Of a DNA stretch of 64,000 bases, positions 5,519 to 64,000 are shown piece by piece. This DNA is from Gammaproteobacteria bacterium. Lineage in GTDB: Bacteria; Pseudomonadota; Gammaproteobacteria; Natronospirales; REEB76. A program made the translations under genes and the position numbers. How positions within the stretch are numbered: the stretch's first letter is position 1; each line of letters opens with the position of its first letter. Where the stretch lies: contig DATEHU010000026.1 of the NCBI GenBank assembly GCA_035279405.1, positions 386,147-450,146 on the forward strand. The letters are read 5' to 3'. The notes below the pieces were generated by a model. That model did not search any database. It was not told the origin of the DNA and saw nothing but the letters and a program-made list of their open reading frames with translations.

Positions 5519-6847
5519 ATGACGACCCCTGCTGATCTTGCCATTCACGCGCGCTGGGTGATTCCCGTCGAGCCCGAGGGCGAGATCCTGGAACAGCACG
5601 CTATCGTGGTGCGTGACGGGCGCATTCTGGCGCTGCTGCCGAGTACCGAGGCCCGGCGCCAATTCCATGCCCACACCAGCGTCGAACTGCCCGACCACGT
5701 GCTCATTCCCGGTTTCGTGAACGCCCATACACACACCCCCATGTCGCTGCTACGGGGTGCGGCCGAGGATATGTCGCCCACGCTGCCACTGCCAGAGCTT
5801 GCATGGACAACGGAAAGCCGCTGGATGAGCGCCGAATTCGTGCGTGACGGCAGCGAATTGGCCATGGTCCGCATGCTGCGCAGCGGCACCACCTGTTTCA
5901 ATGACATGTACTTCTTTCCCGAGGTTACCGCCGAGGCCGCGCAGCGTTGTGGGCTGCGTGCCTGTCTGGGCATGATCGTTACCGACGTTCCTTCTGCCTG
6001 GGCCGGTGGAGCGCACGAATATCTTGCCAAAGGCACGGCGCTGCGTGACCAACACAAGGATGAACCGCTGCTGAGCTTCGCATTCGCACCCATCGCTCCC
6101 TGCGCCATGGCCACGTCGCGGTTGAAGGAAATCCGCACGCTGGCCGATGAATTGGATGTGCCGGTGCATGCAGAACTTAATGCCACGGCCGCAGAAATCC
6201 AACTTTGCCTGCAACAACATGCTGCGCGTCCGCTGGCGTACCTTGACGGGCTTGGATGGCTGACATCAAATCTCATCGCGGCGTACATGACGCTGCCGAC
6301 CGATTCCGAAATCGCCGGGCTGGCGCGCGCCGGCGTGCAGGTGGTGCACTGTCCGGAATCCAGTCTGGGACTCGCGCGCGGATTTTGCCCGGTAGCGAGG
6401 CTCCTGGCCGCGGGTGTAAACGTCGCGCTCGGCACCGGAGGCAGTGCGGTCGACATGCTCGCCGAGATGCGCTGTGCCGCATTGTTAGCCAAAGCCGTGG
6501 CGGGAGATGCGCAGGCGCTACCGCCCGCGAGCGTGCTGCGCATGGCCACGCTCAACGGTGCACGTGCGCTCGGACTCGATCACGCCACGGGTTCACTGCT
6601 GCCGGGGAAATGGGCGGACTTGGTGGCCGTGGACATGAATGTTCCCGAGTGCCGGCCGCTGTACGATCCGCTGTCGCAGCTGGTGTACAGCGCCAGCCGC
6701 AGCCAGGTAAGCGACGTCTGGGTGGCCGGCCGGCAGCTGTTGCGCGCAGGCGAACTCACTACGCTGGATCAGGATGCAATCCTCGCGCGCGCCACGCGCT
6801 GGCAGGAATCTGGCCACGATGCCACGCCCGAGGCCGCCAGCGCATGA
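5519..6847 (+). CDS. TRZ/ATZ-family amidohydrolase (MtaD-like 5-methylthioadenosine/SAH deaminase)
   Basis: 442 aa with the [17 protein letters not shown] metal-binding HxH motif. ATGA overlap into ubiG, which is the usual neighbour of mtaD-like genes. Confidence 0.8.
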
Positions 6848-58772: not shown

Positions 58773-58857
58773 TGGTGCCGACGGGGAGACTCGAACTCCC
58801 ACGGTTTTACCCACTACCACCTCAAAGTAGCGTGTCTACCAATTCCACCACGTCGGC
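58773..58857 (-). tRNA. leuU: tRNA-Leu (GAG)
   Basis: Minus strand: GCCGACGTGGTGGAATTGGTAGACACGCTACTTTGAGGTGGTAGTGGGTAAAACCGTGGGAGTTCGAGTCTCCCCGTCGGCACCA. Anticodon loop TTGAGGT, long variable arm. It lies downstream of secG, as E. coli secG-leuU does. Confidence 0.9.
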
Positions 58858-60571: not shown

Positions 60572-60895
60572 CTATTCTGTGTTTGGCGCTCCGCTGAAGC
60601 GATTACTAAGCGTTTCCAATAAACGTCGCCCATGAATCACGGCAAGGATATGCAGCCTGTCGCCTTGTATCTCGTAGATAAGACGGTAACTGTAAAGAAA
60701 TCGTTCGCGCACGTGCTCATCGTTCAGTTCTGGCACCACGCGTCCAAGCTTTGGTTGCTCGACAACCGCTTCGGCAATCGTGAAGAATTCTTGGGTTACC
60801 CGGCGGGCATGGTAGGAGGAATCGCGACTGATGTATTCGGCAATGGCAGAAACATCGTTAAGCGCTTCGTTCGACCAAATCAGTCTTGCAGCCAT
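60572..60895 (-). CDS. type II toxin, ParE/RelE family
   Basis: 107 aa with WSNEALNDVSAIAEYI.. and ..FLYSYRLIYEIQGDRLHILAVIHGRRLL, a typical ParE/RelE fold signature. 16-nt overlap with the upstream small ORF. Confidence 0.85.
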   Translation of the reverse strand: MAARLIWSNEALNDVSAIAEYISRDSSYHARRVTQEFFTIAEAVVEQPKLGRVVPELNDEHVRERFLYSYRLIYEIQGDRLHILAVIHGRRLLETLSNRFSGAPNTE

Positions 60896-61080
60896 TTTCG
60901 TAACCGCTCCTTGGCCTCTTCGTGGGTGTGGCTGTGCCCCGCCACAATGTCTGCCTGACCCCGCTTGATTTTCTCCAGCACGTACACATGATATTGAATA
61001 TCCTCCAACGTGCTGTTTTCCGGCAGATGGCCCAGGAGCTTTTCTACTTCCTGCTTGGGTGTAAGTACAGTCGCGCTCAT
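60880..61080 (-). CDS. putative cognate antitoxin
   Basis: 66 aa from MSATVLTPKQ (M17 of the listed ORF). LEDIQYHVYVLEKIKRGQADIVAGHSHTHEEAKERLRKWL resembles antitoxins found upstream of ParE-family toxins. The position and overlap also fit. Confidence 0.6.
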   Translation of the reverse strand: MSATVLTPKQEVEKLLGHLPENSTLEDIQYHVYVLEKIKRGQADIVAGHSHTHEEAKERLRKWLQD

Positions 61081-61396
61081 AACGGAATCCCTGGAAATAC
61101 TATGGTGTGATTGTAAGCCCTCCGCCATGATTTCTTCTATCGTGGCGGCGCCAGTTACTGGCAGTGATTAAGGCCAAATCGGCTAAGGCTGCGTGACTGG
61201 TAACCGCGAAGCCACCACGGTGTCCACGGCCGCGCATCACCCAACCGCCATACGTGACCCCCATGGTCGCCATAGCGTGGAGCGGCTTGCTGCATTGCGC
61301 GGGGATACGCGACCTACGGGCATTAACCAGGATTTCCATGGCGTACGGGTCCGATACAAAATAGATCTTTGGCGATTCATCTGGCAACATCCAAGT

Positions 61397-61714
61397 CTAT
61401 ATATGTGATGCAGAATCAACTCTCAGTGACCCGAACGGTTGAAACCCCGGATTGCTGTCCGAGGTGACATTGCCCCAAGCATCGTAGGTAATCTGCTCTG
61501 CGACGGCGCCGGTCGAAGCGTTCACGATCAACACCGGACTCCCGGCTTGATCGGCAACAACGCGATACTCCACTCCACCCTTCATGATGTAATCCGGCAC
61601 GTTCGGGCGGGTACCGTACACAAATTGCTCGACGACGTTGCCGGAGCCGTCAAATTCCGCCACTGGTTCCAATTGGCCATCGCATAGGAGCCACTTGGTA
61701 AACGTATCGATCAC
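61397..61714 (-). pseudogene. orphan YD/RHS core-tip fragment lacking a toxin domain
   Basis: [84 protein letters not shown] matches 76 of 84 residues of 62864-63115. It then diverges (SLRVDSASHI, stop). It begins 3 nt after the upstream immunity stop, with no SD. Confidence 0.75.
61430..61681 (-). repeat. copy B of the 252-nt RHS core-tip repeat
   Basis: Manual codon-by-codon alignment to 62864-63115 gives about 201 of 252 nt identical. Most differences are synonymous. Confidence 0.8.
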
Positions 61715-61717
61715 GTC

Positions 61718-62233
61718 TTACGCTTGCTTATTAAACTGCGGGCACTTTGACCGTAGCTCTGCTACCATTTGATCAAAGTCTTCAAATAATCCACTAATTA
61801 ACAGTCGTTTGTTACCACGTGTATGTATGATCAGTTGATTGTCTCGGTCCGAATGCCCTTTTGTCGTAATTGTGCTGATATCACGAAACTCAATCCGGTG
61901 CTCTCTGAGTCCAATATATGTTATGGATTCCTTATTTATTATTACGCGAGCTTTCCGTATGTAAATTGCCGCCACCATTGCCACCACGAAAGCGGGGCAC
62001 AAAGCAACCTCGACGGGCAGAAGGTTATCCCGCCTTGGCAGGAACAAAATCACGATAATAAGCACAGCGCAAATTAGAGAGAAAATATACAGAAACCAGT
62101 ACCACGGTGGCGGATATCTATAGGTGCTGAAACCATGCGCTTCCTTGTGATGAAACAAGCCCCCCAAAATCAATAACACAGTGATACCAACTGCAGCACC
62201 GATATATGCTATACCGACGTTCGCACCGGTCAT
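61718..62233 (-). CDS. putative immunity protein: 3-TM N-terminus plus PH-like C-terminal domain
   Basis: The ATG abuts the TAG of the upstream toxin ORF (TAGATG). Three hydrophobic helices (about aa 6-27, 44-66, 75-92), then a beta-rich tail KESITYIGLREHRIEFRDISTITTKG..LIIHTRGNKRLLISG reminiscent of bacterial PH (DUF304-like) domains. AT-rich. Confidence 0.6.
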   Translation of the reverse strand: MTGANVGIAYIGAAVGITVLLILGGLFHHKEAHGFSTYRYPPPWYWFLYIFSLICAVLIIVILFLPRRDNLLPVEVALCPAFVVAMVAAIYIRKARVIINKESITYIGLREHRIEFRDISTITTKGHSDRDNQLIIHTRGNKRLLISGLFEDFDQMVAELRSKCPQFNKQA

Positions 62234-63214
62234 CTATGGTCTCTGTGAGGAACTGTTTGCGGCTGCCGGGATCTTCCCTACCGCTGGCAAGCCTTGGCTT
62301 ACCCCAAAATTGATGTTTTCCGCTTCACGATAGAAAAATCCCGCCTGATCCTGCGCGGCTTGCTTTATTGATACCCCTGCGCCCAAGCCAGCAACTTCGC
62401 TGAATCCGCTCAGTAACCCCGCCGCCAGTACCTCTCTACCGTTCACACAGCCATAATTTGACTGCTCCCGGAGTGCTTCAATACCCGCAGTCGCAAGCCC
62501 ACGCCCAGCAATGCCAGCTCCCTCGACAAGCAGGGAACCACCGAATGTGAGGCCAGCGAGCGCACCCGTTGCCGCACCGGCGCCAAAGTCTCTGTCTAGA
62601 GCCCAACCACGATCACCGTTTAAATAGCCACTTGCGAGCTCCAACCCACCTCCTATAAGTCCGCCGACAACTGCCAATACGGGTCCACGACCATTAGCGT
62701 CGAAATCGTTGATTGGATCATCGAGCACGTATCCGTAGAGGTTACTGTCTCCACCCGCAAACAGAATCGGATCGCGGCTGATCCACCTCCCCGTCTGCGG
62801 GTCATAATCCCGCGTTCCAAAATGCACGAACCCGGTATCACGATCATACAACCCGCCCGCAAACCCAAATGGCTGAAATCCCGGATTTGAGTCGGACGTG
62901 ACATTGCCCCAAGCGTCGTAACTGATCTGCTCGGCGACGGCGCCGGTCGAGGCATTCACAATCAGCACCGGACTGCCGACCTGGTCGCTAATCACCCGAT
63001 ATTCCGCCCCGCCCTTCATGATGTAATCCGGCACGTTCGGGCGAGTGCCGTACACGAACTGCTCGACAATGTTGCCGGAGCCATCCAGCATCGCAACGGG
63101 CTCAAGCTGCCCGTCGTACAGGAAACCCTGGACCAACGTGCCGTTCACTTCCTTGCCCACCAAACGGTTCTGACCATTATAGTTGGCGTGAATGTTCTTA
63201 CTCTCCGCCGCCAC
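62234..63214 (-). CDS. orphan YD/RHS core tip fused to a glycine-zipper-rich C-terminal toxin domain
   Basis: Teneurin-like core end [77 protein letters not shown], then a 151-aa Gly/Ala-rich hydrophobic tail. No SD or ATG; the listed start is a GTG inside the core homology. Confidence 0.75.
62864..63115 (-). repeat. copy A of the 252-nt RHS core-tip repeat
   Basis: See copy B. Both copies are in direct orientation on the minus strand. Confidence 0.8.
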
Positions 63215-63258: not shown

Positions 63259-63783
63259 CTAACCATCGAAGGACTGAAGATAATACTTAGTATCCTGTAG
63301 TAATTCGCGCTGGTGGATGTCCAACGAGAGACGACGACGTGTTACGCGCACGTTGTTGAAATCAATTTTTACAATATACGCTTCCGCAGCATCGCCCACC
63401 CAGAAAATGAGTGCCAATTGCTGATTTCCATTGTCCGTAACAAGCATGCCGCGATCCAGGTCGGCAAGGTCGCAAAAGACTGATCGTGGGACAAATATGT
63501 TTTTCCCGTTAACCGATATGGTAACGTTATCCACCACGCTACAAGGCACCCTACTATTTGTGCAACTTGTAAATTTAGTCGCCGTGGTGTCTATGTGACT
63601 CGGGGTTCCATTCTGAATTTCATGTGTTTTAATTGTTACAACTACATTGACATTTTTAATAGTGGTACTAATGATTGTATTACCTTTAGGAAGTATTTTA
63701 ACTGCGTCTAGGAAATTCTGTGCTTGCGCTGTTAGCGCAACGAAAAGACAAGCACCCCCTAGCGAAACCAGAGTACGCCTCAT
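63259..63783 (-). CDS. putative periplasmic immunity protein (signal peptide)
   Basis: 174 aa with [23 protein letters not shown], a Sec signal with an AQA cleavage site. ATGA overlap with the upstream toxin stop. Very AT-rich: 18 G+C in the 60 nt at 63601-63660. Confidence 0.6.
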
Positions 63784-64000
63784 GGCACCACCTGCAATAT
63801 ATCATCGGGTGGACTGTTACGCATGCTTGCCACCAGCTTACGCAGCCGACGATCGGATACGATGCAGCCGTTAGATGAAGTTTTACCTGTATCGTTACGC
63901 TTGGGCCCATGCCAGAAGAAGCCGCTCCGCCCATGCATTTCATTCCCAGAAAACGGTGTGAGCGGCAAGGCATATTGCAATACATGACCTTCATTGGTCA
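63780..64000 (-). CDS. C-terminal end of a larger toxin ORF (open at the window edge) with a Tlde1/DUF2778-like L,D-transpeptidase-fold motif
   Basis: The frame is open to base 64000: ..TNEGHVLQYALPLTPFSGNEMHGRSGFFWHGPKRNDTGKTSSNGCIVSDRRLRKLVASM... The GRSGF-x-HG...S-x-GCI spacing matches the His/Cys catalytic pattern of the YkuD-like Tlde1 effector family as I recall it. Confidence 0.5.
   Translation of the reverse strand, partial: TNEGHVLQYALPLTPFSGNEMHGRSGFFWHGPKRNDTGKTSSNGCIVSDRRLRKLVASMRNSPPDDILQVVP

Follow-up and report, generated by a model that had tools for sequence, protein, structure and literature searches.

An orphan Rhs cassette pairs a rare, candidate membrane-active toxin tail with a membrane protein of the immunity type

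We describe here a 64,000-nucleotide stretch of DNA from an uncultured gammaproteobacterium (contig DATEHU010000026.1; hereafter the window), in which positions 61718..63214 of the minus strand make up an orphan cassette for a toxin and its immunity protein, part of a polymorphic toxin locus of the Rhs/YD-repeat type. The cassette consists of a truncated Rhs open reading frame (ORF) that ends in a tail of 151 amino acids (aa), and of a gene directly downstream for a membrane protein that is the candidate cognate immunity protein. Judged by sequence searches, the tail represents a very rare, unnamed toxin family that is absent from every curated library searched, as a preliminary description of this DNA had supposed. 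We favor, with a probability of roughly 60%, the reading that the tail is a membrane-active, probably pore-forming Rhs toxin which, together with its membrane immunity protein, constitutes an undescribed family. By analogy with characterized systems, such a toxin would most likely kill rival bacteria through damage to their inner membrane.

Results

A rare toxin tail with two predicted glycine zippers

The preliminary description, which a model had made from the sequence alone, recorded a 151-aa tail with three Gly/Ala-rich segments, and we recovered both verbatim at 62237..62689 (Gly 20.5%, Ala 16.6%). It also reported GxxxG-type spacing in these segments. The window tail contains 10 GxxxG motifs compared with 6.0 ± 2.0 in composition-preserving shuffles (p about 0.04), while the looser motif [GAS]xxx[GAS]xxx[GAS] occurs 9 times compared with 11.8 in the shuffles and is therefore not enriched. 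Conservation across the family, which we read from an alignment of 17 sequences (A2), is stronger evidence for zippers than these single-sequence motif counts. Glycine stands at positions 9, 13, 21, 25, 28, 38, 42, 46 and 50 in at least 94% of the sequences, and by this alignment two i+4 glycine zippers, G9-13-17-21-25 and G38-42-46-50, are conserved across the family. The third segment is less zipper-like (A90 is invariant, with G91 in 14/17, G97 in 12/16 and G101 in 11/16 sequences). The family signature comprises the two glycine ladders split by a polar loop, GxxxGxxxGxxxGYxxGDRG...D.GAGAxTGxLAGLTxG.

Other conserved positions of the tail are D26, L31, D34, T41, R63, E71, R74, N78, C81 and A90, among which E71 is the sole near-invariant charged residue of the family. 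The tail presents the zipper hairpin, the conserved polar loop NGDRG, an amphipathic helix (R63/E71/R74/N78/C81), the motif AG..S.FGD..G and a variable tail. The invariant positions are nearly all Gly and are not residues of a catalytic type, a glycine-dominated pattern that fits what a membrane-active, non-enzymatic toxin would be predicted to show. Gly17 is present in 13 of 16 family members and is Glu in the window. The codon for this residue lies at 62639..62641, and P0001, the closest relative, also has Glu here; the surrounding context reads GGGLELASG in the window and P0001, and GGxWGLxNG in the family.

A word-indexed homology search that covered 5.8 billion clusters returned a single relative of the tail, P0001 (84% identity, itself an orphan), and a handful of relatives of the immunity protein, and the family was therefore found only by an exhaustive phmmer search of 1.84 billion representative proteins, which gave 19 matches to the tail, about 15 of them genuine. 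P0006 (5768 aa, 22 stretches, E = 1e-27) was rejected as a repeat-amplified artefact in an E/Q-rich giant protein, in which BLASTP finds none, and P0019 and P0021 were set aside as repeat proteins on inspection of their sequences. A single-protein scan of metagenomes found no relatives; profile scans of genome and metagenome collections found at least one locus per collection. Every tail relative with a visible N-terminal side comes after an Rhs/YD core ending in ...DPxG. A search with a profile of the immunity family gave 7 clusters only, and the toxin-immunity pair is therefore very rare.

Neither the window tail nor the 17-sequence family profile had a meaningful match in Pfam, NCBIfam or PDB sequences. 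No enzymatic family in these libraries matched the tail, in agreement with the earlier statement that it carries no recognizable nuclease, deaminase or ADP-ribosyltransferase motif, and neither did colicin-type or other curated pore-forming domains. The Pfam glycine-zipper families PF13488, PF05433, PF13441 and PF13436 gave no match to the window tail at E ≤ 10; among the 17 family members, PF13441 reached E = 0.53 in two, and no other of these four families matched. The sub-threshold hidden Markov model (HMM) matches of the tail family were to Tim17, Romo1, Gly-zipper_YMGG, DUF883_C and YiaD only, all of them glycine-zipper or small helical membrane proteins, and so may point, weakly, in one direction. 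Matches of the family profile to designed armadillo proteins and to a thiol peroxidase in the PDB were discarded as helical low-complexity noise.

One relative, P0023, is a full-length carrier of 1822 aa (locus L008, 3311..9318) with a Sec signal peptide, Big_5, CarboxypepD_reg, DUF6531 and YD repeats. Among its precomputed Pfam matches there was no PAAR or VgrG family, and its domain make-up suggests that the tail family is delivered by a route other than a type VI secretion system (T6SS). The gene for P0023 is preceded by a gene for an 807-aa TIG-domain protein.

A predicted two-domain membrane protein is encoded next to the tail

The ATG of the downstream ORF (61718..62233) follows directly on the toxin stop codon. 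Its product had been described beforehand as a protein with three transmembrane (TM) helices and a beta-rich C-terminal domain, and Kyte-Doolittle profiles, AlphaFold and Foldseek agree on this two-domain membrane architecture. The hydropathy profile displays three hydrophobic helices followed by a polar C-terminal half. In an AlphaFold2 model built on a 7-sequence alignment (predicted local distance difference test score, pLDDT, 72.6), helices occupy residues 3-24, 42-64 and 69-94, with a short strand at 36-39, and in the C-terminal part six strands that span residues 96-147 are followed by a helix at 153-163. When the C-terminal domain was searched with Foldseek, it matched dozens of PH domains (probability 1.00, best E = 1.1e-3, about 74 columns), and the modeled fold that comes after the TM part is PH-like. 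No Pfam bacterial PH family (bPH, DUF986, DUF6560) rose above its cut-off for this protein, which scored 17.5 bits against DUF6560 (cut-off 27.8; best E among members 1.3e-5), 16.7 bits against DUF986 (cut-off 23.6; E = 5.5e-4) and 12.2 bits against bPH_1 (cut-off 27.7). Basic residues lie past the last helix and the inter-helix loops are neutral or acidic; by the positive-inside rule, the PH-like domain is probably cytoplasmic. The first helix is absent in two homologues, the second copy at L009 and that at L015, and the core of the immunity protein is therefore a TM hairpin plus the PH-like domain.

We found a homologous gene of this TM plus PH-like type directly 3′ of the tail in 11/11 distinct loci with visible downstream DNA (the window with L001-L004 as one pair, L005, L006, L007, L008, L009, L010, L011, L012, L014 and L015), which upholds the original assignment of the two genes as a pair of the toxin/immunity type. 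Loci L010, L012 and L014 are partial, L009 carries two tandem cassettes, and at L008 the immunity gene follows that of the full-length protein. Compared with the window protein, the immunity homologues show about 20-25% identity. A small downstream gene of the immunity type thus appears to co-vary with the tail, with the pairing conserved and the cognate role that of a candidate.

At L009 (345..3185), the two tandem cassettes belong to the same tail family and each has its own divergent TM plus PH-like gene, of 163 aa and 145 aa, the 145-aa product having two TM helices only; an apparent frameshift interrupts the second tail. At L006 (103..2402; Nitrosomonadales metagenome-assembled genome, JACPYR010000018.1), the Rhs ORF stops early, at …RYAYVGGIR*, and the tail, P0010, lies in another frame; this break at the core/tail junction is a frameshift or an assembly error.

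Selection and recent exchange of the cassette

Between the window and L005, the ratio of nonsynonymous to synonymous substitution rates (dN/dS) was 0.07 in the tail, and the immunity gene gave 0.135, with dS > 1. Both cassette genes are under purifying selection and, judged by these ratios, functional and not debris. Near-identical copies of the cassette were present on four further metagenome contigs (L001-L004), one of which, the 8.5-kb farmland metagenome contig L001, carries the same cassette and then five more orphan cassettes of Rhs C-terminal domain and immunity gene. Nucleotide identity between the window and L001 is 99.8% over 62755..61656, an interval that takes in the tail and the immunity gene together with the adjoining core end on one side and the first 60 nucleotides (nt) of the next orphan on the other, whereas the flanking Rhs-core DNA is only 78-89% identical. 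The cassette therefore moved as a unit, via recombination within the core repeats, and its modular transfer between orphan arrays was recent.

These observations bear on the idea that the cassette might be a decaying relic without function, left over in an Rhs array that has eroded, which we consider very unlikely. Such a relic would account for the fragmentary state of the Rhs ORF, for the broken orphan next to it, and for the ParDE module and unrelated DNA that interrupt the array; moreover, a scan for promoters and terminators gave no signal above chance. Yet both frames are intact, and a pseudogene reading was rejected on the dN/dS values above. The near-identical copies on L001-L004 and the recent exchange as a unit likewise argue against decay, and the immunity gene could be useful alone.

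The tail is carried by an orphan fragment of an Rhs core

The ORF that bears the tail is annotated at NCBI as an 'RHS repeat-associated core domain-containing protein' (HKV96971.1) and begins 44 nt past the stop of an upstream immunity-like gene. Its residues 99-175 match Rhs_assc_core (TIGR03696, E = 5.9e-20, NCBIfam scan), and the core fragment matches TEN_YD-shell (PF25023, E = 1.9e-15, Pfam scan). The ORF has no N-terminal shell and no delivery domain, only the last 175 YD-shell residues being present, and this copy is therefore an orphan fragment that is not deployable as it stands. The main Rhs/YD gene lies past the window end.

At the core/tail junction, before RGPV, we read from the sequence an aspartyl-protease-type motif with two Asp (DPxxxx...DPxx), a putative autocleavage site, and this region can be aligned with residues 1023-1120 of 8cp6_B, where the Tse5 shell ends. 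In a search of PDB sequences, the core matched the Tse5 shell 8cp6_B at E = 1.5e-10, and its best relatives were the bacterial teneurin-like proteins 9pt5/9ifo at E = 8e-32 (about 1e-31).

Evidence for and against membrane activity

In the AlphaFold2 model of the tail, residues 2-23 and 29-48 form a helical hairpin with a pLDDT of 85-92, placing both glycine ladders on paired helices. Several observations weigh against a membrane-active, pore-forming tail. Two thirds of the model, helical but outside the hairpin, has a pLDDT <50, and Foldseek gave no significant match to the model, none falling under E = 3; the best non-significant matches were Tim22/Tim23, complex-I B14.7 and SlyB, and those to the AhlB/SmhB pores had E >5 and a probability of at most 0.05. 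Position-independent sums on the Hessa scale amount to +3.3 to +5.4 kcal/mol for the zipper segments, compared with -5.8 to +2.3 kcal/mol for the TM helices of the immunity protein, and the Kyte-Doolittle maxima of the tail segments are only 1.4-1.5. Conserved charges (D26, R27 and D34) sit in the hairpin loop and at the start of helix 2, the window copy has its Glu at zipper position 17, and the zipper signal in the window sequence alone is only marginally above what composition gives. The marginal hydrophobicity makes a simple TM hairpin less convincing; it would also be expected if the toxin must remain soluble within the shell. Finally, glycine zippers can, as reported by Ali et al. 2023, also serve membrane translocation and not killing.

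This last point leads to an unlikely alternative, in which the zipper hairpin is an entry or translocation module and residues ~55-151 are toxic in the target cytoplasm. The hairpin is the most conserved part of the tail, variability is highest in the last 40-50 residues, the conserved polar residues R63, E71, R74, N78 and C81 all lie outside the hairpin, and the modeled soluble PH-like domain, being probably cytoplasmic, could neutralise a part exposed to the cytoplasm; precedents exist in Agrobacterium Tde1, with its N-terminal glycine zipper, and in the CdiA-CT entry domains. However, the remainder of the tail is short, Gly/Ala-rich, helical at low confidence and without an enzyme-like match. 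Homology of the immunity proteins extends to all loci and speaks for a single conserved target surface, not for swappable toxin modules, and an immunity protein embedded in the membrane suits a toxin that resides there.

We give similarly poor odds to a membrane-associated toxin that forms no pore and instead poisons a specific inner-membrane target, with the immunity protein acting as a decoy or shield. Candidate targets would be, for example, a transporter, a lipid II or undecaprenyl carrier, or a respiratory or protein-conducting component that resembles Tim17. Marginal hydrophobicity combined with a conserved polar loop (NGYxSGDRG...D) that resembles a recognition surface would suit such a toxin, as would the Tlde1-like, envelope-targeting toxin of the upstream neighbor. 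Against it stand the conserved i+4 glycine ladders on both helices, a feature typical of helix-helix self-association.

The pore-forming reading has precedents in two systems compared below, Tse5-CT/Tsi5 (PMC9637101) and the hydrophobic C-terminal domain of the teneurin-like protein BiTLP (PMC13018210), and would work as follows. On a full-length Rhs/YD protein, the toxin domain would be encapsulated in the shell and freed by the aspartyl-protease motif of the core. The toxin would then reach the periplasm of a neighboring cell and partition into the cytoplasmic membrane, where the small-residue faces of its helices would self-associate into ion-conducting pores or lesions and the membrane potential would be lost. 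In the producer, the immunity protein would sit in the inner membrane, where it would bind the toxin, either within the bilayer or at it, and keep it from oligomerising. The Tlde1-like neighboring toxin would be envelope-directed, which fits a carrier that reaches the periplasm only. In the window itself, the cassette is probably a reservoir from which recombination could exchange the main gene's tip, and it would also provide a standing immunity gene.

A more detailed scheme, which we regard as doubtful, makes this pair the first example of a new family that is carried mainly by Sec-exported or teneurin-like YD-shell proteins and not by T6SS Rhs effectors. Here the zipper hairpin toxin would be met by one immunity protein with two functions: its TM hairpin would block the toxin in the bilayer, and its PH-like domain, in the cytoplasm, would catch either the tail or the conserved polar loop NGYxSGDRG...D on the cytoplasmic side of the membrane. 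If true, one immunity protein would do the job of the two immunity families of EsxX, and bacterial PH domains would have their first role in toxin immunity.

Comparison with known membrane-active toxins

Tse5-CT of Pseudomonas aeruginosa forms cation-selective pores and depolarises cells (PMC9637101). In the preliminary description, Tse5 was the premise for a pore-forming tail, and of that premise the ion pores and the membrane immunity protein Tsi5 stand. The glycine zipper attributed to Tse5 does not: the term has 0 occurrences in the primary papers PMC9637101 and PMC10684867, which describe TM and amphipathic helices that form cation-selective pores. The Tse5-CT/Tsi5 pair (PA2684/PA2683) resembles the window pair in that a non-enzymatic Rhs C-terminal toxin of about 150 aa lies past a protease motif, and Tsi5, like the window immunity protein, is an integral-membrane protein encoded directly downstream of its toxin. 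Unlike the window protein, Tsi5 is small, has two TM segments and lacks a PH-like domain. A further difference is that Tse5 acts as a PAAR-like/VgrG-linked T6SS effector, whereas P0023, the full-length homologue of the window tail, has a Sec signal peptide. In the PDB sequences, a library that holds the Tse5 shell but in which the Tse5-CT chain is unconfirmed, neither the tail nor its profile had a match at E ≤ 10. The window pair would thus work like Tse5/Tsi5, as an analogue and not as a demonstrated member of its family.

The shell of BiTLP from Bacillus inaquosorum (9pt5/9ifo) is the closest solved relative of the window Rhs core. The C-terminal domain of this protein, BiTLP-CTD, is short and hydrophobic and permeabilises Escherichia coli only when exported to the periplasm, and the toxin gene is followed by an immunity gene (PMC13018210). 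No similarity was detectable between the BiTLP tail and the window tail, and the 2237-aa chain 9pt5_A was unmatched past residue 2143. BiTLP-CTD comprises 94 aa with one predicted TM segment, compared with 151 aa in the window tail.

Glycine zippers have been proposed for Tse4, EsxX/TspA, the ionophore toxins of contact-dependent growth inhibition (CDI) and Tde1. EsxX and TspA are LXG toxins of the Staphylococcus aureus type VII secretion system (T7SS) that depolarise membranes through a glycine zipper as active region and are neutralised by membrane immunity proteins that attach to this zipper (PMC12744356). They differ from the window tail in their LXG/T7SS carrier and Gram-positive host, and no sequence relation was detected; moreover, EsxX needs two immunity families, one cytoplasmic and one membrane, whereas the window protein unites a TM and a soluble part in one chain. 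CDI ionophore toxins of the CdiA-CT EC93 type are small and helical, with a putative glycine zipper helix and a polytopic CdiI immunity protein (PMC11630599). They are like the window pair, by description only, in their membrane-embedded immunity and polymorphic C-terminal cassettes, but it is CdiA that delivers them, with an entry domain that depends on a receptor such as AcrB, whereas the window pair stands in an Rhs/YD context.

For the immunity protein, the closest likeness is to DUF986/YobD, DUF6560 and bPH proteins, which share with its model the architecture of a TM hairpin, a PH-like beta-sandwich and a C-terminal helix. We found no description of DUF986, DUF6560 or bPH proteins as immunity proteins in the literature searched.

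The cassette lies in an eroded orphan array

The features of the cassette and of its surroundings are collected in Table 1.

Table 1. Features of the cassette and its surroundings in the window (a tRNA gene and the Rhs island)
Feature	Coordinates	Strand	Remarks
Toxin-bearing Rhs ORF	62234..63214	-	326 aa, GTG start, stop TAG at 62234-62236
Orphan Rhs/YD-shell C-terminal core fragment	62690..63214	-	residues 1-175; TIGR03696, PF25023
C-terminal toxin domain (putative), 151 aa	62237..62689	-	hairpin + amphipathic helix + variable tail
Candidate cognate immunity gene, 171 aa	61718..62233	-	3 TM helices + C-terminal PH-like domain (predicted)
3′ end of upstream gene, runs off window	63780..64000	-	Tlde1-like L,D-transpeptidase-type motif FFWHG...SSNGCIV
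Signal-peptide ORF, 174 aa	63259..63783	-	start overlaps upstream stop (ATGA)
Second orphan Rhs-core fragment	61397..61714	-	105-aa ORF ending ...FQPFGSLRVDSASHI; PF25023 E = 0.001
ORF of 96 aa	61100..61390	-	between second orphan and ParE module
Small antitoxin-like ORF	60880..61128	-	overlaps ParE toxin ORF
ParE toxin	60572..60895	-	PF05016 ParE_toxin E = 5.1e-17; annotated RelE/ParE
Remnant of further orphan Rhs gene, 72 aa	60237..60452	-	tblastn to L001
tRNA-Leu(GAG)	58773..58857	-	between secG and nuoA

Upstream of the cassette, the 72-aa fragment of the gene that runs off the window matched Tlde1_dom (PF10908) at E = 5.4e-4 and 20.8 bits, below the 30.1-bit cut-off, and this Tlde1-like end presumably supplies the main Rhs/YD gene with its C-terminal toxin. 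The signal-peptide ORF that overlaps it belongs to no Pfam or NCBIfam family and is the sole member of its 90% cluster; from its position, it is probably a candidate periplasmic immunity protein for the Tlde1-like toxin.

Downstream, the second orphan is broken at about 61420 and aligns with an intact 292-aa orphan of L001 up to the breakpoint. The remnant beyond the ParE module matches the beginning of the fifth L001 orphan (5961..6119; E = 1e-24) with 79% identity across 53 aa and has no Pfam match. Compared with L001, about 4.3 kb of the array seems to have given way to about 1 kb that carries the ParDE module. Beyond the Rhs remnant, the gene order is tpiA, secG, tRNA-Leu and the nuo operon, the Rhs island lying upstream of these, and GC content is 0.44-0.45 in the immunity genes vs 0.63 in the nuo operon.

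Discussion

An Rhs-borne membrane toxin with membrane immunity is a known kind of system. Among Rhs, T6SS and polymorphic toxins, those that depolarise membranes are a small minority and poorly understood, and a large effector survey noted pore-forming activity as rare. Polymorphic toxin tails show endless diversity; the family described here is well delimited, and its immunity protein, with TM and PH-like parts, is of an unusual type. What the window adds is a toxin family found in no curated library, with a simple, mutable two-ladder signature, and an architecture of TM hairpin and PH-like domain that, in the literature searched, had no prior link to immunity. The cassette also provides a clean case of a toxin-immunity module swapped as a unit between diverged orphan arrays, and a small set of natural toxin-immunity variants is available for the mapping of specificity. 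If the function is confirmed, the family would solve no open problem and would stand as a modest but real extension of the catalogue.

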